From Kiritimatiellia bacterium (GTDB taxonomy: Bacteria > Verrucomicrobiota > Kiritimatiellia > RFP12 > DVOR01), in contig JAXFQS010000084.1 in assembly GCA_034178815.1 (NCBI GenBank), positions 2,112-66,111 on the forward strand: a DNA stretch of 64,000 nucleotides. Reading direction: 5' to 3'. Under the pieces are notes generated by a model. That model searched no databases. It worked only from the letters and a program-made list of their open reading frames with translations, and was not told the origin of the DNA. A program made the position numbers and the translations under genes. Position 1 is the stretch's first letter, and every line of letters starts with the position of its first letter. This document shows, one piece after another, positions 5,852 through 51,879 of this stretch.

Positions 5852-5857
5852 CACAGC

Positions 5858-6865: not shown

Positions 6866-6871
6866 CCACCC

Positions 6872-9717: not shown

Positions 9718-9742
9718 GGGAGGTTGCGATAGGCAACCTCCC
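9718..9742. repeat. hairpin GGGAGGTTGC-gata-GGCAACCTCCC in convergent intergenic region; motif family member / bidirectional terminator candidate
   Basis: 10-bp perfect stem. Confidence 0.5.
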
Positions 9743-9768
9743 TCAGAGGGACACAGCCTGTCGAACGG

Positions 9769-36171: not shown

Positions 36172-39100
36172 TCAAGGCGTTCCTCCAATCTGCTCGGCCG
36201 GCAAGATGCAGGCGGCGACCGCGTGGTTGGCGTAGGTGCTGACCCGGACGGCAATGCGCTGTCCCTTGAGGCGCGGGAAGGGGTCGAGCCAGCCGCCGAG
36301 CAGTTCCATCTCCACCATACCCTTGACGCAGTCTGCCGAGCGCACCCGGAGGTCGATCGGCGAATAGCGGATGCCTGTTCCGAGCGCCTTCGAGACGGCC
36401 TCCTTCGCGCACCAGAAGCGCAACAACATAGCCGGCGCGTCGCCGCAGGATGCCGCGAGATTCTGCTCCTCCTGCGAGAAGACGCCGCGGGCGAATTCCT
36501 CGCTCAAATCGCGCCCCAGCCGTTCGAGATCGATGCCCAGCCGCGCATTCTCCGCCACAGCCGCCACGACCAGCGACGCCGTGTGCGCGATACTCAGATC
36601 GAGTTGGCCCCCCTGCTCCTGCATCCAGGGCCCGATGGCATGCGGCTTGCCCGAATCGTCCGGCCAGACCGCAATGTCCGCCGCGCCCCAACGCTCCCGG
36701 CGCGTCTCCTGCAAATGGCGCCGGACAGCCTCCTTCGCCGCCACGCGTCCCAGCATCCACTCCAGTCGGCGGGCGACCGAACTTGAGTTGTCGTACCACT
36801 CGTCGCGCTCCTGAGGCGTGAGCACAATCATCGCCAGCGTCTTGAGCCAAAGTTCCTGGTTCCCCGTGAAGAATCGCGGCTCGAAGGACTGCACCACCGC
36901 GCCCCATACCGGCACCGGCGCGGGCGGCATCAACTCGTTCGGCAACGGATCGGTGAAATAGTTCTCCGTGGGGCTCAGCGTAAAGTCATAGAGTTTGCGC
37001 GCCACATGCGTGCTGAGTTCCTCCCAGCCGTGGATTTCGACCAGCAGATTCCCCTGCCCGTCGCTCACCGATATGTCCACCGTTAGCGAACGAGGCGTCA
37101 CCCCCGTCAGCCGCAGATAGGCCTTCAACCGCCCGCCGGGCGGAGGCTCCGGCGCGAAAAAGCAAATCGACCGCGCGCGGAACGGAAACGAAATCGCGCC
37201 CTCAAACTTCTCGTGCGAGCGCCACAGCGGAAAGCCCGAGACCACCCCATCGAAAAGGATTGGCGCCACCGCGAAAGCCGGCAACTCCACCGAGGTGATT
37301 GCCTGCGCCGGAGAAGGCGCCTCCAACTCGAAGTCAATCCCGTTTTCGCTCCACGAATCGACATGGCGGATGGTGCGCAATTGGGGCCCCTGGAAGAGTC
37401 GGCGAGGATAGATGTCTCGCCCCGACCAGTTGACCGCACGCGGATTGACCAGAGGATTTGGACAGGCACGGCGCGTCGGAGGATAGGCCGCCGAAAAAAC
37501 CACCGTAGCCTCAAGAGCCGGCCAGGTGAAACCGGAGTTAGGCTGCTCCTTACGCAGTTGCACCTTCACCGCATACTGCCCGTCAATCCCCCACGACACG
37601 CGCTCCGCCCAGAGCCGCACATCCAGCAAGTCCCGCTCGAATCCCAGCCAGCGTTGCGCCTTCATCCCAAGGATTCGCACCACCCGCAAGCCATCCGGCA
37701 GAAGCCTCTGCGCCGCCTCGCACATCAGTTCGATTCCCGTCGGAACCGACAGCAGCGTCATGCCCCGCAACTGCGTATTGATGCGGGATAGTCGCGAAGA
37801 GCCCAGTGCGTAGTCGCGCAAGAACGGATAGTCCACCAATTTGATGGTTGCGTGCAGTTCCACCGAGATGCCCGGTTCCAGCGAGAGCACCCGAGCCTGC
37901 TGCAGAAGCGGCTGGCGTACGCCACAAGTGCGGTCCCCCTGCTCGGCATGCCCCGGCGCAATCGACGCGGGTGACTCAGCCTCGGGCAAAGCCGTTCGCA
38001 CCGGGTTGAGATTCACCCCCCCTTTGAGCGGATTCAAGAGCACATCGGGATCTACCCTTGGCAGAACAGAGTCCAGACGAATCGGCGGAGAAACCTCGCG
38101 GGGAACCGGCGTGTCGAAATCCAACATAACCGCCCCCGTGAACTCGTCAGCCCCAGAAAGATCCAGCGGCAGCGGCAACGCACCCAACTGCGCGATGGCG
38201 TGGCACAACTGCAAACGGTCCGGCCGATGGAACCGGTTGAGCGAAACACTCAAGTGCGGCCGCTCAGCACCCAATACTGCCGAAACCTGGCGCGCCAAAA
38301 GCCCGCGCACACCGGCATCGACAAAGACTCGGACGCCATCTTCATAGAGCCGTTCAACCGTGCCGGCAAAGTCAACCGGATTGAAGAACTGGTCGGCCAC
38401 CCACGCGGGATTCACCCGCTGACCTGCCTCAATCTTCCGATTCTCCGTGGTCGAGTAGATCGGGATTCTAGGGATATCCCGCAACCACGCGGAGCAGAAC
38501 TGGTTCAAGAGCGGCAAAGCCTTCGCCGCCCAAGGCGTATTGAAAGGAAGCGCCAGGTGACGAGCCGTCACGACTCCCCCCTGCGTCTGCATATCACTGG
38601 AGACCTGCGTAGCAATGTCGGGCGCGACGCAGATAAGGTGATAGTCCGGCGCGATGGCTTGTGAAACCACGCAACGCCCGGGATAGTCCGCGGCAATTTC
38701 TTCGACTTTCTGCCGCGCCAGACGCTCCACTGAAAGAACCGCCACGGAAGGCATGTCCTTGCGCGTAGCCAATCGAGACATCAAGCGGGCGGATTCTCGG
38801 ATAGCCCGGACGCGCTTGATGCGCAACTGCTGGTCGATGGTTGCTCCGGCGACGGCGGCGGCAGAGTAGGCCCCGCACCCAATTCCGGCAACCGCATCCG
38901 GCACAAGCCCCAAACGCGCCATCATATCGGTATAGGCGAGATTAGCGGCGTGGACATCGGCAATAGTCACCGCAGCAGTCAAAGCAGGCGGAGCGTTGTC
39001 AGGAGAGGAGGGGCGGACAGGGTAGAGCAAATCCGTCGCAGTGCCTTCGCCAAAAAGAGCGGAAAGGGCCTCCTCCGCCTCCTCAAGGCGTTGCCGGATA

Positions 39101-39495
39101 ATGGGAGAGCAGAAGGCCGCCTCACGGAGCATTTCGGGGTGCCAGGCGGTTGCTCCGGCATAAAGGAATGCGACCTTCCCTATGGGCGGTTCGCGGAAGT
39201 AATAGGTTCCGGCCTTGTCGCGAATGCGGGCAATGCCCGAGCGGATTTTACGGGCGGCGGTGCGCAGGCGATCGTGCAGAGAGAGCGTATCGCCTGAAGC
39301 GACGACCAGCCCCAATCGATGCGGAGCCTGTTTGGCGGCGAGGGCTGAGGTATAGGCGATATCGCGCAAAGAGACGCCCGGCGCATGCTCAAGGTAGGTG
39401 GCAATCCGGTCGGCCTCCTCGGCGAGTGCGTCGTGGGAGTGCGCCCCAATCAGCAGGACGCTCTGTGAAACGGAGGTGTCGCTGAGGTTGATCAT
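36172..39495 (-). CDS. type I PKS-like multidomain protein: KS-AT linker, AT-like domain (nucleophile Ser replaced by Gly; His replaced), PKS-type DH domain, C-terminal Sfp-type 4'-phosphopantetheinyl transferase domain
   Basis: linker region typical of KS-AT didomain; AT-like FLYAGATAW...GIGCGAYSAA (GHSxG->GIGCG), ...ALPFNTPW (HS->NT); DH motif LHATIKLVDYP; PPTase motifs GIDLERL and FWCAKEAVSKALGTG; ATGA overlap with upstream KS-like gene. Confidence 0.65.
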   Translation of the reverse strand: MINLSDTSVSQSVLLIGAHSHDALAEEADRIATYLEHAPGVSLRDIAYTSALAAKQAPHRLGLVVASGDTLSLHDRLRTAARKIRSGIARIRDKAGTYYFREPPIGKVAFLYAGATAWHPEMLREAAFCSPIIRQRLEEAEEALSALFGEGTATDLLYPVRPSSPDNAPPALTAAVTIADVHAANLAYTDMMARLGLVPDAVAGIGCGAYSAAAVAGATIDQQLRIKRVRAIRESARLMSRLATRKDMPSVAVLSVERLARQKVEEIAADYPGRCVVSQAIAPDYHLICVAPDIATQVSSDMQTQGGVVTARHLALPFNTPWAAKALPLLNQFCSAWLRDIPRIPIYSTTENRKIEAGQRVNPAWVADQFFNPVDFAGTVERLYEDGVRVFVDAGVRGLLARQVSAVLGAERPHLSVSLNRFHRPDRLQLCHAIAQLGALPLPLDLSGADEFTGAVMLDFDTPVPREVSPPIRLDSVLPRVDPDVLLNPLKGGVNLNPVRTALPEAESPASIAPGHAEQGDRTCGVRQPLLQQARVLSLEPGISVELHATIKLVDYPFLRDYALGSSRLSRINTQLRGMTLLSVPTGIELMCEAAQRLLPDGLRVVRILGMKAQRWLGFERDLLDVRLWAERVSWGIDGQYAVKVQLRKEQPNSGFTWPALEATVVFSAAYPPTRRACPNPLVNPRAVNWSGRDIYPRRLFQGPQLRTIRHVDSWSENGIDFELEAPSPAQAITSVELPAFAVAPILFDGVVSGFPLWRSHEKFEGAISFPFRARSICFFAPEPPPGGRLKAYLRLTGVTPRSLTVDISVSDGQGNLLVEIHGWEELSTHVARKLYDFTLSPTENYFTDPLPNELMPPAPVPVWGAVVQSFEPRFFTGNQELWLKTLAMIVLTPQERDEWYDNSSSVARRLEWMLGRVAAKEAVRRHLQETRRERWGAADIAVWPDDSGKPHAIGPWMQEQGGQLDLSIAHTASLVVAAVAENARLGIDLERLGRDLSEEFARGVFSQEEQNLAASCGDAPAMLLRFWCAKEAVSKALGTGIRYSPIDLRVRSADCVKGMVEMELLGGWLDPFPRLKGQRIAVRVSTYANHAVAACILPAEQIGGTP

Positions 39496-40865
39496 GGCTG
39501 ACTGACTGCGGCCGATTCGAGGAGTGCGAAGGCTGTGTTCCCGGTAAAGTCGATGGAGGCAACGGCTGCGCGGCGCGGGCGGGTTCGGGAGCTTACGGCA
39601 ATCCACGGGCGCGGGGCGGCGAGGGTGCAGAGATTGGGGGAGAGTCGTTGAATCTCCTTGTCGTCTGCGCAGGAAGGAGGAATGGCAGCGGCGCGGATGG
39701 AAAGGGCTGCCTTGAGTACGGCGGCGAGGGAGGAAGCGGTCAGTACATGTCCGATGGCGGTCTTGACGGAACCGACAACCATGGGTGCATTGGCTGCGTC
39801 GCGATAGCCGGCGATGGTCTGTAGGAATCGAAGTTCGGCTTGGTCTTGAAGGGGCAAGCCGGAAGCGTTGGCTTCGTAGAGGTCGATGGCGTCCATGTCG
39901 TCGAGCACTTCACGGCAGGCGCGGCGGAGGGATCGGAAGAGGGCATCGGCAAGGGGCGCGACCTGGAGGCTGGAGCAATCGGAGTGGGATTGCCGGGCGA
40001 TGGCTGAGCCAGTCCCGCGCAGGATGGCGTAGATGGATTCAGCCCCCCCCTGGACATCGCGCCTGCGTTTGAGGATGAGGATGGTGCCTCCTTCGGCAAG
40101 GGTGACGCCGTCGCTCTGGTGGTCGAATGCCAACAGGCGGGGGCGGGTGGAGTGGGGAAGAAGGGTGGCGAGGCCTTGGCGCGTGGCGGGTGAAATGGGG
40201 GGCTGAAGGGCGGCGACAATGGCCATATCACAACGCCTGGCGCGGAGTGCGTCGGAGGCCTGTTCCAGTGCGGTGATGCCGGAAGTCCAGCCCGTGTCGC
40301 AGAGGTTTGCTGGGCCGATGATGCCGAGGGTCTGGGCAATGCGCACGGGCAGGACATGGCGCCAGGCTGGTTCGATCGTGCGCTGTCCGAAGGGCGGCAG
40401 GGCTCGTCTCCAGGCATCGCGAAGGCGGTCGAAGTCGGCAGCGGTCAACTGGGGATTGGCGGCGCGGACGAGGCCTATGGTCTGGTCGAGAAGAAGGGTT
40501 TGCTGAAGCCAGTTGACGGAGGCGGGCGTGTGGACGGGGTTGTGGCAGAGGAAGAGGGCGGTGCGGTCTGTCTGGAGGGTGGAGGCGGGGTGGAGTCCGG
40601 CATCGGCGAGGGCTTCTCCAATAAGTTGGAGCAGGAAGCAGGCGGCGTGATCTTCGCCGGGAACCGGGGGCTCTCGCACGAAGGGGGCGTCGGCGGCGCA
40701 GGTATAGAGGGGCCCTAGGGTTTGGGCAGTGTCGGCGGGAATGGTGGCTCCCTGGACAATACGCCTCCAGAAGGTGGCGAGGTCGGGAGTTTCGGCGAAG
40801 CGGCAGGCCGCGCCTACTAGGGCGATGTCGTCTGACGAGAAGGCGCGGCGGGGCGGGTTCATGGG
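39492..40865 (-). CDS. ketosynthase-like protein lacking catalytic Cys/His (KS0 / chain-length-factor-like)
   Basis: KS fold landmarks: IALVGAACRF..FW, DTGWTSG (Cys->Trp), EANASG (His->Asn), AIGHVLTASS (second His retained); start at internal Met 40865, 8 nt after panB stop; Pro/Ser-rich N-terminal ORF extension rejected. Confidence 0.6.
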   Translation of the reverse strand, partial: PMNPPRRAFSSDDIALVGAACRFAETPDLATFWRRIVQGATIPADTAQTLGPLYTCAADAPFVREPPVPGEDHAACFLLQLIGEALADAGLHPASTLQTDRTALFLCHNPVHTPASVNWLQQTLLLDQTIGLVRAANPQLTAADFDRLRDAWRRALPPFGQRTIEPAWRHVLPVRIAQTLGIIGPANLCDTGWTSGITALEQASDALRARRCDMAIVAALQPPISPATRQGLATLLPHSTRPRLLAFDHQSDGVTLAEGGTILILKRRRDVQGGAESIYAILRGTGSAIARQSHSDCSSLQVAPLADALFRSLRRACREVLDDMDAIDLYEANASGLPLQDQAELRFLQTIAGYRDAANAPMVVGSVKTAIGHVLTASSLAAVLKAALSIRAAAIPPSCADDKEIQRLSPNLCTLAAPRPWIAVSSRTRPRRAAVASIDFTGNTAFALLESAAVSQP

Positions 40866-40875
40866 CGGGGGCGGA

Positions 40876-41634
40876 TTAGGCGAGCGTCTGGCGGTAGGCG
40901 GCGAGGGCTTGTCGAATGGTCTCTGCCGCGTTGCCGTAGGAGTTGGCGAAGGAGGGTTTGTGTCCGAGGGTAAGGCCCACGACATCGTTGAAGACGAGTA
41001 TGGTGGCATCGCAACGGTTGCCGGAACCGCAGCCGATGACGGGCACGGGGACGGCTTTGGCGATGGTTTCGGCGGGCTCTTCTGGTACGCATTCGAGGAC
41101 GATGGCGAAGGCTCCGGCGGCGGCGAGAGCTTGGGCATCGCGGGTTAGATTGGCGACGGCTTCGTCGGTTTTTCCTTGGCGGGAGAGGCCGGTGACGAGG
41201 ATGGATTGGGGGGTCAGTCCAATATGTCCGAGCACGGGGATTCCGTTCTGGACGAGGCGGCGAACGAGGGGGGCGCGGATGGCACCGCCTTCGAGTTTGA
41301 CGGCATCGGCGCCGGCTTGCTGGAGGTAGGTTCCGGCGTTGCGGAGGGCCTCGTCGTCGGAGATCTGGTAGGAGAGGAAGGGCATATCGGCGACTACTAG
41401 GGCGTCTTTGACTCCGCGCACGACGGCGGCAGTATGATGGAGCATAATGTTCTGCGTGACGGCGAGGGTGTTGGGATAGCCGAGCACGGTGTTGCCGAGC
41501 GAGTCGCCCACGAGGATGAGTTCGAATCCGGCTTCATCGGCCAACTGGCCGGAGACGGCGTCGTAGGCGGTCACGCAGGTGAATCGGCGAACGCCTTTGA
41601 GGGCGGAAATCTTGGCTGTGGTCCATCTCTTCAT
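40876..41634 (-). CDS. panB: 3-methyl-2-oxobutanoate hydroxymethyltransferase (ketopantoate hydroxymethyltransferase)
   Basis: TAYD, VGDSLGN, ADMPFLSY, VKLEGG, GHIGLTPQS motifs. Confidence 0.9.
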   Translation of the reverse strand: MKRWTTAKISALKGVRRFTCVTAYDAVSGQLADEAGFELILVGDSLGNTVLGYPNTLAVTQNIMLHHTAAVVRGVKDALVVADMPFLSYQISDDEALRNAGTYLQQAGADAVKLEGGAIRAPLVRRLVQNGIPVLGHIGLTPQSILVTGLSRQGKTDEAVANLTRDAQALAAAGAFAIVLECVPEEPAETIAKAVPVPVIGCGSGNRCDATILVFNDVVGLTLGHKPSFANSYGNAAETIRQALAAYRQTLA

Positions 41635-41877: not shown

Positions 41878-42729
41878 TCAATCGCGGCGCGGTCGCCCTT
41901 GGCTAGGCTGTTCCACAGTTTCCTCAGCCCGTCGGCGCATGAGGTCGGCCATAAACTCGCGGTAGTCGCGTTCGCCGTCGTATTCGCGGTCGGGGTCGAT
42001 GTCCGCGTTGCGGGCCAATCGGAAGAGGGTTGTCTCGCGCAGGGTGCAGTCCGGGAAGGCGTTGGCGGCGCAGAGGCGGAGGATCTCTTCTGAGAGCGCG
42101 AAGCGGCTTTTCCCGGGCAGGACGAGGAGTCTGGGCACGGCGGGAAGGGCACAGGAGATGAAGCCTAGGCGGGTTTTCGACGCGACATCTCCGCGGCGTC
42201 TGGCGAGCACGGCGAGGTAGGTTTCGCGGTCGCGCAGGAAGGGGGGGGGTCGATGTTTGCCGAGCAAAACGACGGAGAGGGTGTCGGCCATTTGTTCGCG
42301 GAAAATCGTCCGGGCGGCGGCTTTGTCCTGCGCGCTCCATTGGTTCGCGGGGACGATTTCGGTTGCGGCCTCGCGTTGGAGGGTTTCACGGAGATGACCC
42401 CACACCTCGGCGCGAAACGCAGAGAGACGCTGGACTTCCGAGCGGGCGGCGGCAAGTTGCTCGGCGACGGACAGACCCGTTTTTTCATCTGGTTCGCCGC
42501 CCAACTGCAGGCGGTCGACCAAGGCTCCGATGCGGACTTTGAAGAACTCGTCGAGGTTGGTCTGGAAGATAGAGAGGAAGGCGAGCCGTTCGCAGAGCGG
42601 CACATCGTCCCGGGCGGCCTCGCCGAGCACGCGCTCGCTGAACTTGAGCCAACTCAATTCGCGGTTGATGAAGAGGTTCTGCCGCGCCTCGGCGGGGAGG
42701 CTGTCCAAAGAGGGGTTGCGCTGATTCAT
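41878..42729 (-). pseudogene. ppk: polyphosphate kinase 1 truncated after N and head domains (catalytic C1/C2 domains absent)
   Basis: PPK1 N-domain FINRELSWLKFSERVL, LAFLSIFQTNLDEFFKVR, head domain through ...NADIDPDREYD...MADLMRRR; ORF stops after approx. 285 of approx. 700 expected residues and panB begins 243 nt downstream. Confidence 0.65.
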
Positions 42730-42841
42730 CACGCCGACACAATCGCACAATCGTGTTAGGGTTGTGTCAGCATTCTGCAGGCGGCGCGATTGGTGCGCAC
42801 CTCTAGCCCCCAAAGATACCCACCTCGGTTCCCCCTTCCAG

Positions 42842-42893: not shown

Positions 42894-42930
42894 GAAAAAG
42901 AGGGCCGCCGGCATTGCCGACGGCCCTCGA
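42894..42930 (-). terminator. intrinsic terminator (12-bp stem, U5) downstream of giant secreted protein gene
   Basis: minus-strand RNA GAGGGCCGUCGG-caaug-CCGGCGGCCCUC-UUUUUC. Confidence 0.5.
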
Positions 42931-42945
42931 CTGCCAAGCGGACGC

Positions 42946-45900
42946 CTAATCGCCTAGCAGACGCTTCCAAGCCTTTTCGACCGCGGGCATCGACGACTCC
43001 GGAACGCCCAGCGCCTTGAGCACCTCGCGCGCAATCAGCCGGTGCCCGGCCGCGACCGGATGCACCCCATCGTAAGTGAAATGCCGCTCACCCGTCTTCG
43101 GCAGTTTTGCCAACGCCTCCACCTCCGCCCGCCGACAGTCCGCATAAGGCAACCCCCGGCGCTTCGCCTCGGCGCGGATGAAGTCGGCGAACAAATCGAG
43201 TTGGCGATTCTCGTCATTGTCCGGATTCTCCTGAATGAGCGTCGGCGTCAGCGGCACGACCAGCACCCCCGCACGCGCCGCCTTGTCGTAGATCTCCCGC
43301 ACATTCTGCTCATACGCCTCAAGTTCCACCCCGCGGCCCCAGTCATAGCCCCAAATGTCATTCACCCCGCAAGAGACCGTCAGCACCTTCACCTCGGGAT
43401 TCGAGAGAATTCCGCCTACCCGGCCGAGCATATCCCCCGCATTCTGCCCATCGCATCCCGCACGCACCGCCCGCACATCCTTGACGCCCACCGCATCAAG
43501 CCCCGCCAGCACCAGAGCGATATACCCCCTATCTCCGCCCCCCAGACGCGTAATGGAATCGCCCAAAAACGCAATCGTCTCCCCCGCCTTCACGCGAATG
43601 CCGCGCACTCCGGCCCTTGCTGGCGACGCCACAAACCCGTTCGGGCGCTCGAACCGCTGCCGCTCATAGAGTTCCGGCGGCGGGACGGCAGAACCCAGCG
43701 AGCACATCGTCCGAGTCGAGAACCCATCCGGAGCCGTCCGCCGCACGCAAAACCGACCACCCAAAATTCCAAACTCCTTCAAGAGAACATTCCCCGGCCA
43801 ATCAACTGCCGCCGCCTCGCCCCGACTGCGAAGCGCCCCCATCCACCACCGCCAAGCCGTCCCCGTCACCAGCAGTCCGCCCCCCCCTCGGACAAACTCC
43901 GCCAGTTCCGCCGCTTCCCCATCCTTGAGCGACGAACCATCCACCTTCCGGAATCGCCCATTGACCGAAAGCCACCGCACAATCTGCTCACGAAGCCCCC
44001 TGTTCTCAGGCAGTTCCAGCGACTCCGAATCATCGGCAACATAGACCACGCGCCCCTTCCCCGCCCCCCCTGCTGCAGCCACACACGCCGCCGAACGATC
44101 CCAATTCCTCGCAGCAAAAAGCGGGAACGCCCCCTTCCCCGTGCAATAGACCGAGCCCGCCAAACCATTCACCTTGAAATAACGCGTTCCCGCCGTCAAC
44201 TCCGCCCGTGCCGCGAGTTGCTCAGCAGTCAGCGGCTCCGCCCAAGGCGCAATCTGAGATTGAGGCGCAACACAGTCTGACACGCACACCCGGAACCCCG
44301 TCGCGCCGTGGCCAATCACCGGAGCCGTCTTGCTTCCCAGCCGCCGCCCCCAGGCCGCACAACTCCCTGGATCACCATAGCAAAGCACCGAACCGCCTTT
44401 CATCACACGCCGCCCCTTGTGGCTTCGACTCTCATCGCGAGGCCCCACAGGATCCGTCCCGGAACAGTCCAACAGGCTCTCCGGCGTATTGTGGAAATCA
44501 AGACAGTGCTCAAACAGATTTCCGTGCATATCGTAAAGCCCCCACAGGTTCGGCCGGTACGACCCAACCGCCGCCGGACAAGCCACCCCGCCACAGTTTC
44601 CGCTGTAGCGCCCCAGCGTATCCAAAACGCGATCCCGCTTGACGCTCATAGGCGGCTTGGCATCCTTCACCTTGTAAGGCGCCGCCGCCTCTCCAGTCCC
44701 CCAAGGCCCCTCGCATCCGGCACGACACGCCCACTCCCATTGAGCCTCGGTCGGCAAATCGAAGTCGGCACGAAATCCCGTCAATTCGCGCAGACGACCG
44801 AAAAAGGAGTCGGGCGCGACCTCATATCCCGAGAACGGCCAGCAGATACCGTCGGATGTATGTCCACGCGTATGGCTGTAAGAAATTCCGTTGACAGGAA
44901 GGCTCCCCCGAGCCTCCGAATGCCCGAAGGTGTCCCCGCGCCATGCCCCCATAATGTGGAACCACTGCCTTTGAGTCACCTCGTAAACCCCGATATAATA
45001 GGGGCGGGTCAAAGTCACCCCATGACGCGCATCAGCCCCAGAAGAGAGTTGCGGATTGCCCAAGAAGACCTCGCCGGGCGTAGGTTCGATTCGGCGCAGC
45101 AGCAGCCAATCACCCTTCCACCGCTCGGCCTTCTCTCCTTCTGGCACAGACTCGCGAGTCGGATAGAGTTCAATTTTCCCCTCGTCCGGCCCCGTTAGGC
45201 AGACGCCCATATAAAGTCCCTTTACCGGAGTCGTCGCCAGCGGCTTGTACGGTTCCCGAACCAACCCTCGAACTAGTCCGTCCGGAGCCTTCGCATACTG
45301 GGAACAGTGCCGCGCAGCCGCCTCGGATACCGGCAACGACCACTGACGCATCACAGCCGCAAGATCCTGCTTCACGGCGGCGGAAAACTCCCGGGCGAAG
45401 ACATCCCACTTATCTCCATTCGTACGCGGCACCGCAAAGCCAGGCTTTCGGTAAACGGCGAACACCCGTGCCATCGCGTCCCACCCATAGGTTTCCACCA
45501 GTCTGGCGTAAAACTCAAGCGCGAGGAAGGGATCTTTTTTCCAACTCTCGAAGCGTTTACCCGACGCCACCCACTGCCGCACTTTGGCATCCGCGACGGC
45601 ACGGGCTGTCGCGAAACCGTTCTCCCGGAAACTGCGTCCGGAGACTTTGGATATGCCCAACAGGGTGAAGAGGTTGACGGTGACTTCAGAGGTTCCTTCA
45701 GGCGTCCAGGCGGGATTCTGGTGATTGTGTCCGATCTCGTGGTAGACGCCCCAGGCTTGGGCTCGTTCCAACGCCTGACGGTCGAGGATTACCGCCGAAG
45801 GGTTGCGCCGATTGACTAGAGCCATCATGGGATAGCCGTCGTGAAGGACTCCGATCCCTTGCAATTGGATGTCGCTGCAGAGGCGTTCGGGAGAACGGCG

Positions 45901-47478
45901 AGAAGGCAAACCGGAGAGCCACTGGCAAGCGTCGAGATAGCGATCCCAGTAGGCCGCGACCCACTCGGGATCCTTGCATTGCGCCAGGCCGGTGGTCTCG
46001 AAGGTGATGATGTAGTTGAGGCCTTCAATTTCCCCCTGCGGCGCACCAGTCTGGCGGCACTCTTCGAAGAATCCCTCGGCGGTATCGCGTCCCAGTTTGA
46101 ACCAGGGCGCCATCACGGCTCCGTCAATGCGGACTTTGAAGCGTTTGCCCGCGGCGGGGGGCTGGTCGGGGACGATGATGTAGACGAGTCCGCCGAATGG
46201 GGAGGTCAACTCGACGCGGGATTGTAGCACAGGCGCCTCGGTGGTGACAAGCGGAAAACGCTTCCAGCCCTTGGCCGCGCCGGAGAGGTCATCCTGGGTC
46301 GTGCCGATGCGGATGCGGAGGTTCCAGTCGGCGGCGCCCTCGGGGAAGGTAAAGGTTATCCGGCTACCTGCCGGGGCGAAGAGTCCTGTCGAATGCCAAC
46401 GCGGAACATCAGGTTCGATTTCAATCTCGCGCGAGACGGTCGGGGTTCCGGGCTTGACCAGACCTGGATAAACTTCGGCGGCGGGGTCGGCGGGCCAATG
46501 CCTGAAGCGGTCGGTCTCGTAGGCGGCTTTGCGGGCAAGGATGGCAAGTCTGGCGAAGATGTCTTCGGGTTCCACGGGATGTTCCGGGGAGGGCACTTTG
46601 GCGGCGTCTGGGTGCTTAGCGAAAGCGGCAATCTTCTCCAGCACGCCTTGAGGGAGCGAGGGGGGCAGGACGGCGGCCATTTGGGAGAGGACGACGGCTA
46701 CTTGCCGTTTCTGTTCGCGGCTGGAATAGGTGTTTTTGGCGGCAATCTGGAGTGCGTCGTCGGCGCGGGTACCGTCGGGCACGGTCTGGGGATCGAGCGG
46801 GAAGCCCTGCTTGTCGGGGCGGACGATTCCGATGTCGCCCATCAAGATGCCCATAGGGCCGAAGGTGCGATTGTCTCCGAAGTCGTCGGCGAAGGAGACG
46901 GCCCGGGAGCGGCTGGCGATTTGCTTCCAGCCCCAGCCGAGTCCGGCACCGAGGAGTCCGCCTCCATTGCGGACGAAGTCGAGATAGGCGGGGGCGTTCT
47001 GGACGGTGAAGTCGATGGAGGCGATGAGGTCGTAGCGGGGAAAGTCGGCGGTATCGGCGACGAGGGTGGATTCAATTCCGGCGCGCTTGAGGGCGTTTCG
47101 GATGGAGGGGTTTCGGTAGACGCCGATTTTGGGGGCGGGCTTGTTGCGCGAGAGCCAGCGGACGGCATTGCGGTGGAATGCTAGGGTATCGTCGGAGAGT
47201 TTGCCGTGGGTGAGGAAGGAGGGGTGTCCGAGGTAAATGGCTCGACCTTTGCCGTAGATTGCTCCGGCGGCGGCGAAGGTCGCGGTACCGTCCCAGTTCT
47301 TGGCGCGGGCGATGGGGAAGGCTTCGTCGGAGAGGACGAGCACGGTGCCGGGGAGACCGTCGCAGTTGATGGCACGGACGCCTTCGGCGAGTTCTTTGGG
47401 GAGCGTGGCGGAGGCGGCGTGCAGCACGGGGGCGAGAAGGGCGCCGAGGAGGAGGTTTTGAAGCAGTCTATTCATCAT
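42946..47478 (-). CDS. 1510-aa secreted multidomain protein: ThuA-like domain, M60-like/enhancin zincin peptidase domain (HEIGH), FGE-sulfatase (SUMF1-like) domain, second ThuA-like domain, C-terminal SGNH/GDSL hydrolase
   Basis: signal peptide MMNRLLQNLLLGALLAPVLHA; M60-like YHEIGHNHQ...E; FGE motifs RPYYIGVYEVTQRQW, GSYRPNLWGLYDMHGNLFE, KGGSVL...GFRVCV; SGNH block I IAFLGDSIT and block V DGVHP. Confidence 0.65.
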   Translation of the reverse strand: MMNRLLQNLLLGALLAPVLHAASATLPKELAEGVRAINCDGLPGTVLVLSDEAFPIARAKNWDGTATFAAAGAIYGKGRAIYLGHPSFLTHGKLSDDTLAFHRNAVRWLSRNKPAPKIGVYRNPSIRNALKRAGIESTLVADTADFPRYDLIASIDFTVQNAPAYLDFVRNGGGLLGAGLGWGWKQIASRSRAVSFADDFGDNRTFGPMGILMGDIGIVRPDKQGFPLDPQTVPDGTRADDALQIAAKNTYSSREQKRQVAVVLSQMAAVLPPSLPQGVLEKIAAFAKHPDAAKVPSPEHPVEPEDIFARLAILARKAAYETDRFRHWPADPAAEVYPGLVKPGTPTVSREIEIEPDVPRWHSTGLFAPAGSRITFTFPEGAADWNLRIRIGTTQDDLSGAAKGWKRFPLVTTEAPVLQSRVELTSPFGGLVYIIVPDQPPAAGKRFKVRIDGAVMAPWFKLGRDTAEGFFEECRQTGAPQGEIEGLNYIITFETTGLAQCKDPEWVAAYWDRYLDACQWLSGLPSRRSPERLCSDIQLQGIGVLHDGYPMMALVNRRNPSAVILDRQALERAQAWGVYHEIGHNHQNPAWTPEGTSEVTVNLFTLLGISKVSGRSFRENGFATARAVADAKVRQWVASGKRFESWKKDPFLALEFYARLVETYGWDAMARVFAVYRKPGFAVPRTNGDKWDVFAREFSAAVKQDLAAVMRQWSLPVSEAAARHCSQYAKAPDGLVRGLVREPYKPLATTPVKGLYMGVCLTGPDEGKIELYPTRESVPEGEKAERWKGDWLLLRRIEPTPGEVFLGNPQLSSGADARHGVTLTRPYYIGVYEVTQRQWFHIMGAWRGDTFGHSEARGSLPVNGISYSHTRGHTSDGICWPFSGYEVAPDSFFGRLRELTGFRADFDLPTEAQWEWACRAGCEGPWGTGEAAAPYKVKDAKPPMSVKRDRVLDTLGRYSGNCGGVACPAAVGSYRPNLWGLYDMHGNLFEHCLDFHNTPESLLDCSGTDPVGPRDESRSHKGRRVMKGGSVLCYGDPGSCAAWGRRLGSKTAPVIGHGATGFRVCVSDCVAPQSQIAPWAEPLTAEQLAARAELTAGTRYFKVNGLAGSVYCTGKGAFPLFAARNWDRSAACVAAAGGAGKGRVVYVADDSESLELPENRGLREQIVRWLSVNGRFRKVDGSSLKDGEAAELAEFVRGGGGLLVTGTAWRWWMGALRSRGEAAAVDWPGNVLLKEFGILGGRFCVRRTAPDGFSTRTMCSLGSAVPPPELYERQRFERPNGFVASPARAGVRGIRVKAGETIAFLGDSITRLGGGDRGYIALVLAGLDAVGVKDVRAVRAGCDGQNAGDMLGRVGGILSNPEVKVLTVSCGVNDIWGYDWGRGVELEAYEQNVREIYDKAARAGVLVVPLTPTLIQENPDNDENRQLDLFADFIRAEAKRRGLPYADCRRAEVEALAKLPKTGERHFTYDGVHPVAAGHRLIAREVLKALGVPESSMPAVEKAWKRLLGD

Positions 47479-48428
47479 GGTTTCTCATTGGATGGTTCGA
47501 GAACAAGGCGAAATCCGACGGCCGCATGGCGCGTAGAGGGGTTGCACATATCGCCGAGCCAGCGGGCGTAACTGGTGCAGGCGGAGTTGCTGCCGAAGAG
47601 GTAGTTCCAGTAACTTCCGGAGCGCAGGACGCGGGTCTTGCTCTTGGAACTTGCCGGGCCCTTGGGATTGTCTCCGGCGTAGGCGGGGTGGCCCGCGGGG
47701 GCGAACCAGTCGCGGCAGAATTCGTAGGCGTTGCCGTGCATATCGTAGAGTCCCCAGGCATTGGGGCGGTAGGAGCCGACAGGGGCAGGGCCGTTGGTGC
47801 AGCCTCCGTTGGCGAAGTAGCGGCCGAGGCGGTCGAGGGCGTGGTCAGACCAGTAGGGGATGGGTTTGCCGTCGGGGCTCGGACGGTCGTAGGGTTGAGC
47901 GTCGGAGCCGTCGTTCCAGCAGGTGTCGGTGCCGGCGCGGCAGGCGACCTCCCATTGGGCTTCGGTGGGCAGATCGAAGGGGAGTCCCGTGCGGGCGCGA
48001 AGTCGGCCGAGAATAGAGTTGGTGGCGACGGCGGGGCCGCTCTTGGGCCAGTCGATGCCTTCGCGCAGGGAGCCGCGCAGGTCATTGTAGGAGAGATTCA
48101 AAGCCGGGAGCGGCCCCGTATCCTGCGTACCTCCGAGATGGTTTAATTGGCTCCTTGTGGTCTCGAAGATGGCTATGAAATAGGGGCGGGTGATGCGAAC
48201 CTTACGGGCCTCATCGTTGGCACCTCTGGGGGCGGCGGGATTGCCGAGGCGGATGGGTTCGGGCGTGGGATCGACGCGACGCATCAACACCCATTCATCG
48301 CGCCAGCGGGGGCTCGCTTCGCCGCCGGGAATCGCTTCGCGGGAGGGATAGGTTTCAACCTCCGCAGGGCCACCACCGATACGAACCGCTAGATAGAGCG
48401 CAGAGGAAAGTAGCAAAATGGGATTCAC
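47475..48428 (-). CDS. FGE-sulfatase (formylglycine-generating enzyme/SUMF1-like) domain protein, paralogous to FGE domain of downstream giant protein
   Basis: GTG start with GGAGG 9 nt upstream, overlapping sigma stop (GTGA); motifs RPYFIAIFETTRSQ, DLPTEAQWEVACRAG, GSYRPNAWGLYDMHGNAYEF, RSGSYW...GFRLV. Confidence 0.6.
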   Translation of the reverse strand: MNPILLLSSALYLAVRIGGGPAEVETYPSREAIPGGEASPRWRDEWVLMRRVDPTPEPIRLGNPAAPRGANDEARKVRITRPYFIAIFETTRSQLNHLGGTQDTGPLPALNLSYNDLRGSLREGIDWPKSGPAVATNSILGRLRARTGLPFDLPTEAQWEVACRAGTDTCWNDGSDAQPYDRPSPDGKPIPYWSDHALDRLGRYFANGGCTNGPAPVGSYRPNAWGLYDMHGNAYEFCRDWFAPAGHPAYAGDNPKGPASSKSKTRVLRSGSYWNYLFGSNSACTSYARWLGDMCNPSTRHAAVGFRLVLEPSNEKP

Positions 48429-49462
48429 TTGAGAACTCCTCCCCCGGCCACCGTCGCGAACGACCCGTTCATGCGCCAGGCAGGCGGGTTGGGCGAGCAT
48501 TCGAGATCCAGAAGGCGAACCCCGAAGACCCCCTCCGTGCTGGGTTTCTCCGCCGTCAAAGGCGCGACCGAGGCGTTCAGTCGGGGAGTCGCGACCCGCC
48601 CCCAAATATCCTCCCCGATCTGAACCAACAAGAGATTCGCCGTAAAGGTGCCCGACGGTGTGGATACTTCGCACGGTGCCATCAGAACCGCGCCATCGTT
48701 GACAATCGAGGGGCGGATGCGCTGCTTGCAGAGTCGGTCGGAGCAGAGATAGATGTCTGCCGAAAGCCCTTGAATCGCCCCCAGCCGACGCCCCGGGCAG
48801 ACCAGTTGAAGCCCGTCGCCCAGCCAGATTTCCTGCCGCATCACGCGCCCGGAGGGGCGCATCAGATGGATGCCGAGAAGGAGTCCCGCCGCCGCTAGAA
48901 GCACTAGGCAACTCTTTCCGATCGCGCGCGCTGCCGGAGTTTGGAGCAACCCGCCAAGATAGATGCGTGCATAGTGCAGGCGGGACTTGACGGTGCCTTC
49001 CGGGATAGAGAGGATTTTGGCAATCCGCGCCACCGGGATGTCCATAAAATAGTGCATCAGGATGGCTTCGCGCATCTCTTTCGGAAGCGAGTCGATGCTC
49101 TTGCGCAAGGTTTCCGCGTCCAGGCCTTGGCCCAACCGATTGGTGCTTTCCGTATCGGTCGATTCGGGCGGGGAGTCGGTCACCACCATCCTCTTGAAGG
49201 CCTGCGTGCGCACCATCTGGAGGTGAAAGTTCCGCAGAATAGCCGAGAGCCAGGCGTAGAAGGAGTCGGCAGAGCGGCAGGTATCGATTCGTTCGATTGC
49301 CCGCTCGAAGGTACGGAACACCAAGTCCTCCGCCGTGTGCGCGTCCACCCCGAAAGCGCGGGCTTCGGCCTTGAGACGGGTGCGGTACCGCGCCACCATC
49401 AGACGCGCCCCGCGCTCCGCATCGGTGCGTATCGCCAAGAGTATATCGTCCGTATCTTCCAT
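48425..49462 (-). CDS. ECF (sigma-70 family) sigma factor fused to a C-terminal transmembrane helix and approx. 135-aa extracytoplasmic domain
   Basis: region 2 (FERAIERIDTCRSADSFYAWLSAILRNF) and region 4 (LPKEMREAILMHYFMDIPVARIAKILSIPEGTVKSRLHYAR), then TM SCLVLLAAAGLLLGIHLM, then non-cytoplasmic tail. Confidence 0.6.
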   Translation of the reverse strand: MEDTDDILLAIRTDAERGARLMVARYRTRLKAEARAFGVDAHTAEDLVFRTFERAIERIDTCRSADSFYAWLSAILRNFHLQMVRTQAFKRMVVTDSPPESTDTESTNRLGQGLDAETLRKSIDSLPKEMREAILMHYFMDIPVARIAKILSIPEGTVKSRLHYARIYLGGLLQTPAARAIGKSCLVLLAAAGLLLGIHLMRPSGRVMRQEIWLGDGLQLVCPGRRLGAIQGLSADIYLCSDRLCKQRIRPSIVNDGAVLMAPCEVSTPSGTFTANLLLVQIGEDIWGRVATPRLNASVAPLTAEKPSTEGVFGVRLLDLECSPNPPAWRMNGSFATVAGGGVLK

Positions 49463-49464: not shown

Positions 49465-51879
49465 CTAGAGGTTGATTTCGTTGACCCCCGCAGATAGGTT
49501 CCTCACGAGCCCATTCCAACGTAGCACCGCCGGCAGCCCGTCGGGCACCACCACGCGACCGGAAAGTTTAGTCCCCTCGAAATGCAAGTCGCAGACGAGT
49601 TTCCCCTTCGGGTGCGGAAAGGTCGAACGAATCCACTTCAATGGGCCCGGCTGGGGCGCAATCTCGACCGACGAAAAACCGTATTCCGTCGGGCGAATCC
49701 CACACAGCAGCGTCTGGAAATGGAACGCTGGATGCGCCGACCAGGCATGGCAGTCGCTCCGCGTCCCAAGCCAACCTTCCTCCGGCGTCGTCGCGAATCC
49801 GTACGCCACCGCCTCACGCCAGATGCCTAGCCGTTTCAGGAACAAATCGGGACGCCCCACGGCCTTGTAGGCCGAAAACAGATAGTGGGAAAAATAGATG
49901 CCCGTGCGTACCAGCCCACCCCCTTCGCGCGTAGCATTCGCCTCCAGCGCCGACACCACTCGGGGCAACTGGTTCGTATCAAACGCCCCGACGAGAATCC
50001 CCAGAGCCTGCGCATGCTCGGTAAAGACCTGTCCCCCTGGATCATCGGCTATCAACCCCCTTGCTTCGTTCCAAAACCGCCGCATCACGCCTTGCACGCA
50101 ACGCGCAGAATGCTTGCGAAGTCCCGCCGCAAAATCCAGGTTTCCCGCCGCTGCCTCCGCATCCGCCGCCCTCAGTAGCGCCAACGCCCAATGCAAAGTG
50201 ATGGGTGCCGTCAGCCTCGGAGTCTTGCCCTGAATATGCCCCCAATCTAGAAAACACCACCCCGGAAGATACTCGAGAATTCCCTCCGCATTCTCGTACT
50301 GCTCAATCGCAGCAAGCGTATGACGCATCCCCGGAAGCATCTTCCGAAGACCCGGCAAATCGTCACGCCACAGGGCATAATCTCCCACCGCCATCGGTAG
50401 ACAGATAGAATAGGTTCCCGACTCCTGAAGGCGCCTGCTGGGGGTATTCATAGGCAGGAATCCGTCCCGGAAGCGCGAATCGTCGAAGAGCCCGATAGCC
50501 CTTCTCACGAGGCGGGCGTCTGGCGTCATCGCGGCCGAGACAAGCCAATCAACCCGGCTGTCTCCGCCGTACATCTGCTGTTCAATGAAAGGGCAGTCGA
50601 AGAACATCTCGTGGGAACACATCTCCATCGCCCGATTGCAGATTCGGTTGATCTGCGCGAGTTGGGAATCGCTTGCCTCGAAGGCATTCTCCGCATCGGC
50701 AGGGTAGCGCGTCTCCTCTAGGACAAGACGCTTCAAAGTGAGCGGATCATCGGCTGTTTCAACCGTCAGCACGCTCCACCTTCCGCAGCGCCACCAAGGC
50801 GTAGTGAAGGAGGCGTCCTGTCTACCGTCTGGAAGAAAGGTGTCTTGGAAAAGCCCCGGCACAATCTTGCCCTCTCGCTGGTTCCTGCGCCCCTTCTGCC
50901 CCGCCACCTTGTCGCTTTGGCCGTCCGGAATCACGAGCGATTCGGTCCAGCCCCAAGCAATCTTCGCGCCCTTCCCGCCTCCGACATGGAGTTGGGGATA
51001 GAAGCAGAAGTAGTTGCCCAAGTCAATCACGAACTGCCGTTTGGAGTGGGCGGGAACGACCAGCAGAGCATCCTTCGAAAGGAGTTCGTCAAAGCCTTTG
51101 TCTCCCGAGATTCCAACGCGCCGCCGCGCGGCGAGCTGGTCAGGGATATCGGTCGGCCAAAGGCGCAGATCGCGCTCTTTGCGTACGCCGCAAGCGTGCC
51201 GTTTGGGTATTGGAGTTGCAACGATGGAGGGAGTATACAGTTTTTCGGGGAGTGCGTCAAGAAAAGAGGTTCCGGTGATTTGGACTTGGTGTCCGCCGCC
51301 CCAACTGCCGCCGCCGGGACCGCACGCCTCCATGGTGGAAAGGAGTCCGCATTTCCAGGCGCCTCGGCCTGTGGTGAGAAGCGGGTCGTAACTACCGGAT
51401 GCCTTGAGGATGAGGCGGGCGCGGCCGGAACTCAGCTGCGCCAACGGGGCGGCCTCACCCATTTGGGTGACAATAACTTTGAGGTTGTGCCGCCCTGGAT
51501 CGAGGTCGATGCGATAACTCTGGTAGAACCAGCGCGCGGGGGTGCCTCTATGCGGTCCACGGGCGAGGAGTCTGCCGTCGAGGAAGAGCCAAAAGCGCTC
51601 ATCCGCGGAGATGTCGATTTCCAGCGGTTCGTCGCCTTGTCGGTCGAAATCGCAGGTATAGTATTCGACATTGACCTTGCGGTGGCGCGGGGCGGGGCCA
51701 TTGGCGGCAATCCACCTTGCCTGGTCGATGGGGGTCATCGCGACGAGGTTGACATTGCCGGGAATGGGCGGCGGATCGCGGAAGATCTGTTCGACTTTAT
51801 TGGCAAAGCCCCCCGTCGCGAGGATGGCGAAAAGGGTAGCGGGGAGCAGGCGGTCAAAGCGGGGGAGTCCGGGTTGCAT
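49465..51879 (-). CDS. secreted alpha-L-rhamnosidase-like glycoside hydrolase (GH78 family, six-hairpin catalytic domain)
   Basis: signal peptide MQPGLPRFDRLLPATLFAILATGGFA; N-terminal beta-sandwich domains; C-terminal (alpha/alpha)6 region (DCPFIEQQMYGGD, WALALL, EEGW); start at internal Met. Confidence 0.55.
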   Translation of the reverse strand: MQPGLPRFDRLLPATLFAILATGGFANKVEQIFRDPPPIPGNVNLVAMTPIDQARWIAANGPAPRHRKVNVEYYTCDFDRQGDEPLEIDISADERFWLFLDGRLLARGPHRGTPARWFYQSYRIDLDPGRHNLKVIVTQMGEAAPLAQLSSGRARLILKASGSYDPLLTTGRGAWKCGLLSTMEACGPGGGSWGGGHQVQITGTSFLDALPEKLYTPSIVATPIPKRHACGVRKERDLRLWPTDIPDQLAARRRVGISGDKGFDELLSKDALLVVPAHSKRQFVIDLGNYFCFYPQLHVGGGKGAKIAWGWTESLVIPDGQSDKVAGQKGRRNQREGKIVPGLFQDTFLPDGRQDASFTTPWWRCGRWSVLTVETADDPLTLKRLVLEETRYPADAENAFEASDSQLAQINRICNRAMEMCSHEMFFDCPFIEQQMYGGDSRVDWLVSAAMTPDARLVRRAIGLFDDSRFRDGFLPMNTPSRRLQESGTYSICLPMAVGDYALWRDDLPGLRKMLPGMRHTLAAIEQYENAEGILEYLPGWCFLDWGHIQGKTPRLTAPITLHWALALLRAADAEAAAGNLDFAAGLRKHSARCVQGVMRRFWNEARGLIADDPGGQVFTEHAQALGILVGAFDTNQLPRVVSALEANATREGGGLVRTGIYFSHYLFSAYKAVGRPDLFLKRLGIWREAVAYGFATTPEEGWLGTRSDCHAWSAHPAFHFQTLLCGIRPTEYGFSSVEIAPQPGPLKWIRSTFPHPKGKLVCDLHFEGTKLSGRVVVPDGLPAVLRWNGLVRNLSAGVNEINL

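Follow-up and report, generated by a model that had tools for sequence, protein, structure and literature searches.

A secreted M60-like peptidase of Kiritimatiellia that carries putative TCAF_N domains together with FGE-like and SGNH esterase domains

What is a single reading frame of 1510 codons, in which a peptidase, an esterase and several further domains follow one another, likely to act upon? M60 O-glycopeptidases serve as tools in glycoproteomics and have been studied as mucin degraders, and nearly all those characterised so far are enzymes of gut bacteria or of pathogens. The frame examined here lies in a contig of a Kiritimatiellia bacterium, in a stretch of 64,000 nucleotides that we analysed as a whole (the window). 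An earlier note had described it as an undescribed, mucin-targeting fusion of an M60-like zincin, an FGE-sulfatase fold, two ThuA-like domains and an SGNH hydrolase; the observation was confirmed in part and the interpretation supported in part. Its coordinates, 42946-47478, proved exact, with the ORF on the minus strand, and its central claim of one secreted polypeptide uniting an M60-like zincin, an FGE-fold domain and an SGNH esterase was supported. We predict, and think it rather probable, that this is a secreted multi-domain enzyme that acts extracellularly, breaking down O-glycosylated proteins or proteoglycans and coupling glycan deacetylation to glycan-dependent proteolysis. The features of the protein are as follows.

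42946..47478, minus strand: whole ORF, ATG start, 1510 aa plus stop codon in one uninterrupted frame
47416..47478, minus strand: signal peptide (aa 1-21), MMNRLLQNLLLGALLAPVLHA, read from the sequence
46444..47415, minus strand: TCAF_N copy 1 (aa 22-345), alpha/beta core plus helical tail, like the N-domain of IMPa
46132..46413, minus strand: M60-like_N beta-sandwich (aa 356-449; Pfam PF17291, 55 bits)
45337..46122, minus strand: Peptidase_M60 catalytic domain (aa 453-714; Pfam PF13402)
45685..45753, minus strand: active-site stretch, W576-G-V-Y-H580-E581-I-G-H584 ... E598, with N602 just downstream
44281..45216, minus strand: FGE-like domain (aa 755-1066) with a subfamily-specific N-terminal extension (YPTRE..GE..RWK..LLLRR)
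43714..44202, minus strand: TCAF_N copy 2 (aa 1093-1255), shortened, lacking the helical tail
42994..43593, minus strand: SGNH/GDSL esterase (aa 1296-1495; S1308, G1344, N1373, D1470, H1473)

The unusual length and the heterogeneous domains could reflect an assembly or gene-calling artefact that merged separate genes, and the window does differ from its closest relative by a deletion of ~2 kb just downstream of the ORF. The probability of such an artefact is negligible, since the same architecture recurs in independent assemblies, which excludes a fusion created by assembly. Twenty full-length relatives (1487-1571 aa, 42-94% identical, 97-100% of the query covered) share the same domains; they come from separate Kiritimatiellia assemblies (NCBI, ENA, JGI, Logan) and bring the full-length set to 21 with the query, while two shorter or partial relatives (P0003, P0020) cover 88%. 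In a scan of genome contigs, the multi-domain gene was found at six of 80 loci, all six from GTDB species representatives; three span practically the full query, and of the three incomplete ones two stop at a contig end. The linkers are short and every domain is under purifying selection. Because the scan patterns were drawn from the SGNH domain, the same scan returned mostly stand-alone SGNH genes, which have no M60, TCAF_N or FGE-like gene within 8 kb save for one weak FGE-like match and thus lend no neighbourhood support.

The N-terminus (MMNRLLQNLLLGALLAPVLHAA/SA) is signal-peptide-like on reading of the sequence alone, as had been claimed, and the N-termini of the orthologues are comparable in the alignment; the predicted signal peptide (aa 1-21) contains no lipobox cysteine. 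An exact-sequence look-up did not find the window protein itself on record, and its relatives are already in NCBI under the name "M60 family metallopeptidase". The fusion is undescribed in that no paper on the architecture was found, though not in the databases, where the family is already named. Literature searches on TCAF/M60-like, Kiritimatiellia M60 and peptidase_M60/SGNH returned nothing relevant. The protein is an unusual combination of known enzyme kinds and not a new kind of system.

The peptidase assignment is carried by the Pfam scan and by the conserved residues, which together upheld the proposed HEIGH zincin motif with a downstream Glu. Peptidase_M60 (PF13402) matched at 156.1 bits against a cut-off of 25.8, the entire profile being covered (1-275), and the catalytic fold is preceded by the M60-like_N beta-sandwich. 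The gluzincin motif of the M60-like family is HEXXHX(8,28)E (PMC3267712); here H580-E581-I-G-H584 is followed by 13 residues and E598. W576, H580, E581 and H584 do not vary across the alignment, and 20 of the 21 full-length proteins have E598 and N602. The whole stretch aligns with the W/HEXXH/E/N residues of characterised O-glycopeptidases and solved M60 enzymes, among them IMPa (PA0572, the Pseudomonas aeruginosa immunomodulating metalloprotease; PDB 5kdv, 7jtv), in which W692 and N720 contact GalNAc (PMC10550946; bioRxiv 10.1101/2021.09.09.459412). W576 and N602 align with this GalNAc-contacting pair of IMPa (PMC10550946). Arg742 is the third GalNAc-contacting residue of IMPa; the alignment mapped only the Trp and the Asn. 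Down to 42% identity there is little or no variation at the zincin and SGNH residues or at those that may contact GalNAc. By analogy with the characterised O-glycopeptidases, the M60 domain would cut the peptide bond adjoining a glycosylated Ser or Thr, and W576 and N602 may read the first sugar of the glycan.

The two further domains had been taken for ThuA-like domains flanking the FGE-like one. Neither part of this survived: membership of the ThuA-like/class-I glutamine amidotransferase fold was rejected for want of a PF06283 match, and one domain precedes the peptidase, the other separating the FGE-like domain from the SGNH domain. Both (aa ~22-345 and ~1093-1255) are, on profile evidence, probable TCAF_N domains (PF27016). 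That evidence consists of precomputed hits in the orthologues P0001, P0005 and P0017: the N-terminal copy has an unmarked hit (E <= 1e-5) in all three, of which P0001 is 94% identical to the query; for the second copy the P0001 hit is again unmarked, and those in P0005 and P0017 carry a weak flag. The copies are homologous to each other, with 30% identity by BLASTP (E 1e-9) and HMM cross-hits of 1e-11 to 1e-28. A word-index search with the TCAF_N alignment was saturated at 9 matches; an exhaustive representative search with a profile made from the domain was more informative, finding 2343 representative clusters.

In fold comparison, the only significant match of the TCAF_N model was the N-terminal domain of IMPa. 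The core at aa 22-715 would accordingly form an IMPa/TCAF-type module of TCAF_N, M60-like_N and the M60 gluzincin catalytic domain. IMPa is likewise secreted, with an HExGH zincin motif, and has the same core order of N-terminal alpha/beta domain, M60-like_N and M60 catalytic domain, but identity is only ~13-17% and the relative domain orientation is not superposable; as judged from the models, the resemblance is structural. Membership of the ImpA family (NCBIfam NF038322, ImpA_fam_HExGH) was rejected at 35.2 bits against 250, with only aa 343-466 matching. IMPa, whose N-domain is filed in another Pfam family, PF18650 (PMC10550946), lacks the FGE-like domain, the second N-domain copy and the SGNH domain.

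M60-like domains are typically paired with glycan-binding modules (PMC3267712), and an O-glycopeptide was bound at an exosite in the IMPa N-terminal domain (PMC10550946; bioRxiv 10.1101/2021.09.09.459412), a single crystal complex whose catalytic relevance has been questioned (bioRxiv 10.1101/2021.09.09.459412). Extrapolating from that one complex, we infer that TCAF_N copy 1, and probably copy 2, would be non-catalytic substrate-binding exosites.

Over its first ~720 aa the protein also shares the Pfam architecture TCAF_N-M60-like_N-Peptidase_M60, the measure by which we judged the likeness, with TCAF1 and TCAF2, the vertebrate TRPM8 channel-associated factors. TCAFs are intracellular TRPM8 channel regulators for which we know of no demonstrated peptidase activity, whereas the protein here is secreted, retains an intact active site and possesses three further domains. 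HEXXH is missing from some vertebrate M60-like proteins (PMC3267712). Bacterial M60 proteins differ in what they carry besides the peptidase. Neither the Bacillus anthracis M60-like protein (PDB 4fca/5ev7), deposited as a conserved protein of unknown function, nor the SslE/AcfD lipoprotein metalloproteases have FGE-like or SGNH modules, and membership of the SslE NCBIfam family was rejected on a full-length score of 52 bits against 800. AM0627, BT4244, ZmpA/B/C and the BcM60s, at 16-21% identity, have CBM32, CBM51 and BACON as accessory modules instead of TCAF_N, FGE-like and SGNH domains, and their substrates are mammalian mucin-type glycans.

The role of the FGE-like domain is the hardest to read. 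FGE-sulfatase (PF03781) matched aa 801-1064 at 74.4 bits against 23.3, FGEs in the PDB match at E 1e-6, and the LPTEAQWE and WGLYDMHGN motifs of the FGE/SUMF1 superfamily are conserved, a kinship at the level of the fold. Paralogy to the upstream gene, proposed before, is borne out by 43% identity over 317 aa. More than 4000 relatives were found, and by these the domain is placed in a very large PVC-bacterial subfamily; it differs from the superfamily at large in its own N-terminal extension, in being embedded in a secreted peptidase and in its cysteines. The description as a complete FGE domain thus holds for the fold and fails for the conserved catalytic Cys pair, which is absent from its family. 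The first catalytic Cys is missing from 120 of the 120 closest relatives, and the second is present in 81 of them; of the full-length proteins, the query, P0001 and P0002 alone have the first, the other 18 of 21 lacking it, and C1033 and C1040 of the query are spaced C-x6-C against the C-x4-C of functional FGE. Since the subfamily lacks the pair, the domain is not a formylglycine-generating enzyme, and canonical FGE function was rejected because the catalytic (copper-binding) C-x4-C pair is not conserved.

A catalytic domain has nevertheless to be weighed: it could be an extracytoplasmic, sulfatase-maturing FGE or another glycoprotein oxidase, giving the protein three activities. Beyond the PF03781 match, conservation equals that of the peptidase domain (21% invariant columns among orthologues in each), which would also fit some catalytic role, and C1033 and C1040 do align with the catalytic pair of Streptomyces coelicolor FGE in the query, P0001 and P0002. 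Against this stand the missing first Cys and the altered spacing. Many PF03781 proteins are not FGEs in any case, as with PvdO and GldJ/GldK/PorK, to which NCBIfam matches were obtained here. A Pfam scan of the neighbourhood, covering the ten ORFs of 35.4-56.5 kb of the window, found no sulfatase domain. Kiritimatiellales are sulfatase-rich with many unexplained FGE-domain genes, but FGE requires O2 and the cultured strains described are strict anaerobes (PMC6388578). We regard catalysis by this domain as very unlikely. We prefer to read the FGE-like domain as a conserved module peculiar to the PVC subfamily, C-type-lectin-like in fold, that would bind a ligand; this is the weakest step of the proposed mechanism.

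The neighbourhood offers a second setting for this fold. The M60 gene closes a five-gene block that includes GH78-like, ECF sigma and stand-alone FGE-like genes:

51926..53824, minus strand: secreted protein with a single weak Flg_new repeat; its gene opens the conserved five-gene block
49465..51879, minus strand: GH78-like protein (alpha-L-rhamnosidase six-hairpin), 804 aa, signal-peptide-like N-terminus
48425..49462, minus strand: ECF-type sigma factor, 345 aa, with regions 2 and 4, a hydrophobic helix and a C-terminal part of ~140 aa
47475..48428, minus strand: stand-alone FGE-like paralogue, 317 aa, GTG start, lacking a recognisable signal peptide
42900..42928, minus strand: intrinsic-terminator-like hairpin, 13-bp stem with 11 GC pairs, T-run

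Stop and start codons overlap as GTGA between the sigma factor and FGE-like genes and as ATGA between the FGE-like and M60 genes. The hairpin begins 18 nt past the stop codon of the 1510-aa ORF and is the predicted end of the operon; a consensus promoter scan found sites no more often than in shuffled sequence, and we therefore claim no promoter. The block is kept in the relatives at 94% and ~70% identity, and orthologues at 50% identity or less lack the GH78, sigma and FGE-like neighbours. The operon would thereby add two other secreted proteins, a predicted membrane-anchored ECF sigma factor and an FGE-like paralogue to the peptidase, and its content suggests a self-regulated glycoprotein-utilisation locus. 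Conceivably, though this is quite unlikely, the FGE-like domain is a recognition domain for a particular glycan or glycoprotein, common to the secreted enzyme and to the stand-alone paralogue, which would act with the adjacent sigma factor, so that one fold serves both the degradation and the sensing of a single substrate. The ECF classification paper makes no mention of FGE or of the phyla concerned here.

The C-terminal GDSL/SGNH esterase had been recognised correctly. Lipase_GDSL_2 (PF13472) matched aa 1304-1481 at 75.2 bits against 32.9, and FLGDSIT, AGxDGQ (G1344), GVND and DGVHP (blocks I, II, III and V) are invariant in all 21 sequences. Matches in the PDB were the AlAXEase-like 7ddy (6.8e-13) and the Geobacillus acetyl xylan esterase Axe2 (3w7v; 1.2e-11); all four blocks and the Ser-Asp-His triad are in common with these acetyl esterases, the difference being that the SGNH fold is here the C-terminal domain of a peptidase. 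It would strip the glycans of O-acetyl or other ester groups and so allow the peptidase and its partner glycosidases to engage.

Which glycoproteins these might be is indicated by the company that the core keeps. SGNH and the TCAF_N-M60 core are joined in three arrangements: C-terminal after FGE-like and TCAF_N, as here; N-terminal in P0023, P0025 and P0030, at ~25% identity to the SGNH domain here; and, in P0177 and P0179, immediately behind M60 with CBM32 modules after it. CBM32 is also fused to the core in P0034, and a full GH78 rhamnosidase in P0274. We take these fusions as sequence-level evidence of a probable functional coupling to the core.

The mucin target assumed in the earlier note would make the protein a classical mucinase that degrades host mucin for an animal-associated bacterium, with its SGNH domain as a sialate O-acetylesterase. 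Many relatives of the SGNH domain do come from ruminant gut MAGs, but the operon partner is GH78-like, P0274 joins a rhamnosidase to the same core, and mammalian mucin glycans, to our knowledge, contain no rhamnose. The nearest solved SGNH relatives are of acetyl xylan esterase type and not sialate esterases, and the ten ORFs scanned contained neither a sialidase nor any of the GH families usual in mucin loci. Most of the characterised M60-like enzymes are peptidases that act on mucin or O-glycans (PMC3267712, PMC9325726), and a clade of Kiritimatiellales became enriched when mucin was supplied (PMC6388578). We rate the mucinase reading as unlikely. The rhamnosidase links argue at least as strongly for an acetylated, rhamnose-containing glycoprotein of algal, plant or microbial origin, and the esterase, CBM32 and GH78 fusions predict a non-mucin substrate class of acetylated, possibly rhamnosylated glycoproteins.

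An IMPa/TCAF-type core in free-standing, putatively environmental PVC bacteria would represent a different branch of the M60 enzymes, one in which esterases, CBM32 modules and a GH78 rhamnosidase have joined the core repeatedly and apparently by independent fusions, and new cleavage specificities are predicted for its members. The bacterial TCAF_N domain could be a tractable model for the N-terminal half of the vertebrate TCAFs. An FGE fold that lacks the catalytic cysteines in a secreted hydrolase offers an experimental route to the role of the many "FGE" genes of strict anaerobes, a question posed for Kiritimatiellales. If the recognition role is true, FGE-like domains would constitute a new class of modules that bind carbohydrates or glycopeptides, and the large "FGE" gene expansion of anaerobic Kiritimatiellia, Lentisphaerae and Planctomycetes would gain a function.

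The minus strand of 42946..47478 carries a single uninterrupted ORF with an ATG start, encoding the 1510-aa M60 multi-enzyme; the plus-strand translation was full of stops and was rejected. The open frame and its exact coordinates in the earlier note were thus correct, with the minus strand as the coding one. Read from the sequence, the N-terminus (MMNRLLQNLLLGALLAPVLHAA|SA) resembles a Sec signal peptide and has no lipobox, and the orthologues have equivalent N-termini in the alignment; we infer that the protein is secreted. The ATG shares bases with the preceding gene's stop codon (ATGA), and a strong terminator-like hairpin (13-bp stem and T-run) lies 18 nt past the stop codon. In the Pfam scan, four matches exceeded the curated cut-offs, upholding the M60-like and SGNH assignments that had been made from sequence alone.

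Pfam matches in the M60 multi-enzyme
aa 356-449, M60-like_N
aa 453-714, Peptidase_M60 (156 bits; cut-off 25.8)
aa 801-1064, FGE-sulfatase
aa 1304-1481, Lipase_GDSL_2

NCBIfam gave partial matches to the SslE/AcfD, ImpA-family, GldK and PvdO models, all far below threshold. The protein search returned 20 full-length relatives (1487-1571 aa, 42-94% identical, 97-100% of the query covered), along with P0003 and P0020, which are shorter or partial; where named, the relatives come from Kiritimatiellia MAGs and are labelled "M60 family metallopeptidase". The gene was present in six GTDB species representatives, three of which covered essentially the whole query. A fusion created by misassembly, the objection raised in the earlier note, is ruled out by this family of the same architecture conserved across MAGs. 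In an alignment of 21 sequences, the zincin residues H580, E581 and H584 and the SGNH blocks FLGDSIT, G1344, GVND and DGVHP were invariant, and E598 was kept in 20. The share of invariant columns per domain indicates that all domains are maintained by selection.

Invariant columns in the 21-sequence alignment
SGNH domain, 30%
M60 catalytic domain, 21%
FGE-like domain, 21%
TCAF_N copies, 8-9%
Linkers, 0-8%

Two further regions, aa ~22-345 and ~1093-1255, had no match in the local Pfam copy, the scan of the whole protein giving no ThuA match and a DUF4350 match at aa 59-96 below threshold. They are homologous to each other (30% identity, E 1e-9, BLASTP), and an HMM of either copy detected the other in every orthologue (E 1e-11 to 1e-28). 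Precomputed Pfam annotation of the orthologues lists PF27016:TCAF_N twice, once N-terminally and once in the stretch separating the FGE-like from the SGNH domain, in agreement with the five significant Foldseek matches, all IMPa entries (E ~1e-8), including the O-glycopeptide complex 7jtv. The two extra domains appear to be the accessory N-domain known from IMPa; their previous reading as ThuA-like was remotely right about the flavodoxin/class-I-amidotransferase-like fold and wrong about the family. By Pfam's naming, vertebrate TCAF proteins have this domain in common with the M60 multi-enzyme. The N-domain of IMPa has an exosite at which a bound O-glycopeptide was observed (PMC10550946); it was proposed to recognise Pro-Ser/Thr(glycan), its role in catalysis being debated (bioRxiv 10.1101/2021.09.09.459412), and TCAF_N may likewise provide an exosite for the substrate. 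TCAF_N was also found by itself (300 aa) and in fusions where it follows TIR domains (TIR_2/ThsB_TIR-like) (P0164, P0165, P0161, P0167), one of these proteins (1886 aa) having nine matched stretches, so the domain is not limited to M60 peptidases.

The predicted structure of aa 22-745 (pLDDT 87.4) matched solved M60 enzymes.

Structural matches of the aa 22-745 model
5ev7 (B. anthracis M60-like), 20.5
AM0627, 17.6
IMPa, 17.4
ZmpA, 16.1
BT4244, 15.1
ZmpB, 14.8

The core sequence profile matched 4fca (7.8e-38), an AcfD/SslE homologue (1e-34) and AM0627 (1.4e-18). W576-G-x-x-HEIGH...E598-V-T-V-N602 aligns with the W...HEXXH...E...N pattern of the solved enzymes, and the IMPa counterparts of W576 and N602, Trp692 and Asn720, contact GalNAc (PMC10550946). 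From motif and model, the peptidase looks active and glycan-directed, and its M60 domain would cleave in an O-glycan-dependent manner.

The FGE-like domain and the FGE-like paralogue encoded immediately upstream share 43% identity across 317 aa. Its subfamily is very large (>4000 matches at E 1e-5 or better), carries a characteristic N-terminal extension and is made up mostly of stand-alone proteins, 300-560 aa long. A few have an organism name, which is always Kiritimatiellia, Kiritimatiellae/Kiritimatiellaeota or Oligosphaeraceae, and bear the annotation "FGE family protein". C1033 and C1040 align with the catalytic cysteines of S. coelicolor FGE (HMMER), with C-x6-C spacing versus C-x4-C in FGE. 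The first cysteine is absent in 18 of the 21 full-length proteins and in all 120 closest family members (120/120), 81 of which keep the second. Given this absence and spacing, the domain lacks the catalytic feature that defines FGE; of the "complete" FGE/SUMF1-like domain described earlier, the fold and the kinship with the upstream gene stand. Van Vliet et al. counted 11-20 such genes in strictly anaerobic Kiritimatiellales and proposed that they are inactive or otherwise functional (PMC6388578). Because the domain is highly conserved, we tentatively favour a specific ligand-binding role, and a catalytic role other than that of FGE is possible.

An exhaustive TCAF_N profile search gave 2343 representative clusters. 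Most of the best matches were ~720-770 aa, the size expected of a plain signal peptide-TCAF_N-M60 form, and the five-domain form (TCAF_N-M60-FGE-like-TCAF_N-SGNH) occurred in only three clusters. The SGNH domain is N-terminal in P0023, P0025 and P0030 and, being only ~25% identical to that of the query, was probably acquired independently; P0177 and P0179 have M60, then SGNH, then CBM32 modules. An esterase is thus fused to the M60 core in three arrangements, and these recurring fusions give the strongest indication here that one substrate would undergo both de-esterification and proteolysis, with the SGNH domain possibly de-acetylating glycans. CBM32 is the sole addition to the core in P0034. 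In P0281 (1516 aa) the core is followed by a long WD40 beta-propeller repeat array, another uncommon accessory module on an M60 peptidase. P0274 (1465 aa), with a core 34% identical to the query, carries a complete GH78 alpha-L-rhamnosidase (Bac_rhamnosid_N, concanavalin-like, 6H and C domains; E 1e-90) in front of TCAF_N-M60-like_N-M60. At locus L008 (JAEDLN010000004.1, Kiritimatiellae MAG241, 341-12765), three TCAF_N-M60 paralogues lie near one another on one strand, the middle one of five-domain form; in locus L001, a double-SGNH gene comes directly after the M60 gene, and another, short M60 gene lies 8 kb downstream.

The M60 multi-enzyme gene closes a one-strand block that the window shares with the 94% and ~70% identical relatives (L004/L005, L006).

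Genes of the conserved block, in order
Secreted 638-aa protein of unknown function
GH78-like protein with signal peptide
48425..49462 (-), ECF-type sigma factor, extended by a hydrophobic helix and ~140 C-terminal residues
FGE-like paralogue
42946..47478 (-), M60 multi-enzyme

There is little room between the genes of the block: the sigma factor and FGE-like genes have 4 nt in common, as do the FGE-like and M60 genes, and the gap between the GH78-like stop and the sigma factor start is 2 nt. Among orthologues at <=50% identity this neighbourhood is not kept, and some adjoin further M60 or SGNH genes. The sigma factor has regions 2 and 4, then the helix AARAIGKSCLVLLAAAGLLLGIHLM and the C-terminal part, which had no Pfam match, and is translationally coupled (GTGA) to the FGE-like protein, which has no recognisable signal peptide. 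It looks membrane-tethered and may regulate the operon of secreted hydrolases in which it lies. The P0274 fusion mirrors this operon, where the GH78-like gene precedes the M60 gene by three positions, and the GH78 link, as neighbour and as fusion, speaks against restricting the substrate to animal mucin.

Within 41878..42813 (-), at a junction near 41929-41941, ~1.97 kb is absent relative to the ~90% identical contig JBJFGP010000091.1 (L004 12021..13993), namely nearly the whole of ppx together with ppk's C-terminal half, and a 311-aa ppk remnant (PP_kinase_N and part of the middle domain) adjoins panB on its upstream side. At the junction the two blastn segments share 13 bp, pointing to either a deletion mediated by microhomology or a difference in assembly. 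Downstream of panB, 36172..41138 (-) holds large PKS/PUFA-synthase-like genes, including a ketoacyl synthase and a 1144-aa acyltransferase-dehydratase-phosphopantetheinyl transferase ORF. G+C is ~0.62-0.65 over 36-50 kb versus ~0.60 in most of the remaining window.

The domains of the M60 multi-enzyme all come from known families, its first ~720 residues form an established module, and the protein family already carries an NCBI name. The five-domain arrangement occurs only within a Kiritimatiellia clade; our literature search found no description of it, as the earlier note had supposed for its version with ThuA-like domains in place of TCAF_N. Beyond the observed architecture, intact active-site motifs, folds, conservation and operon structure, an active secreted M60 peptidase joined to an active esterase is highly probable, and the composite picture as a whole is reasonably likely. 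The main points of interest are an FGE-fold domain without the catalytic cysteines within a secreted hydrolase, and the repeated esterase, rhamnosidase and CBM fusions, which point to an unexplored class of substrates.
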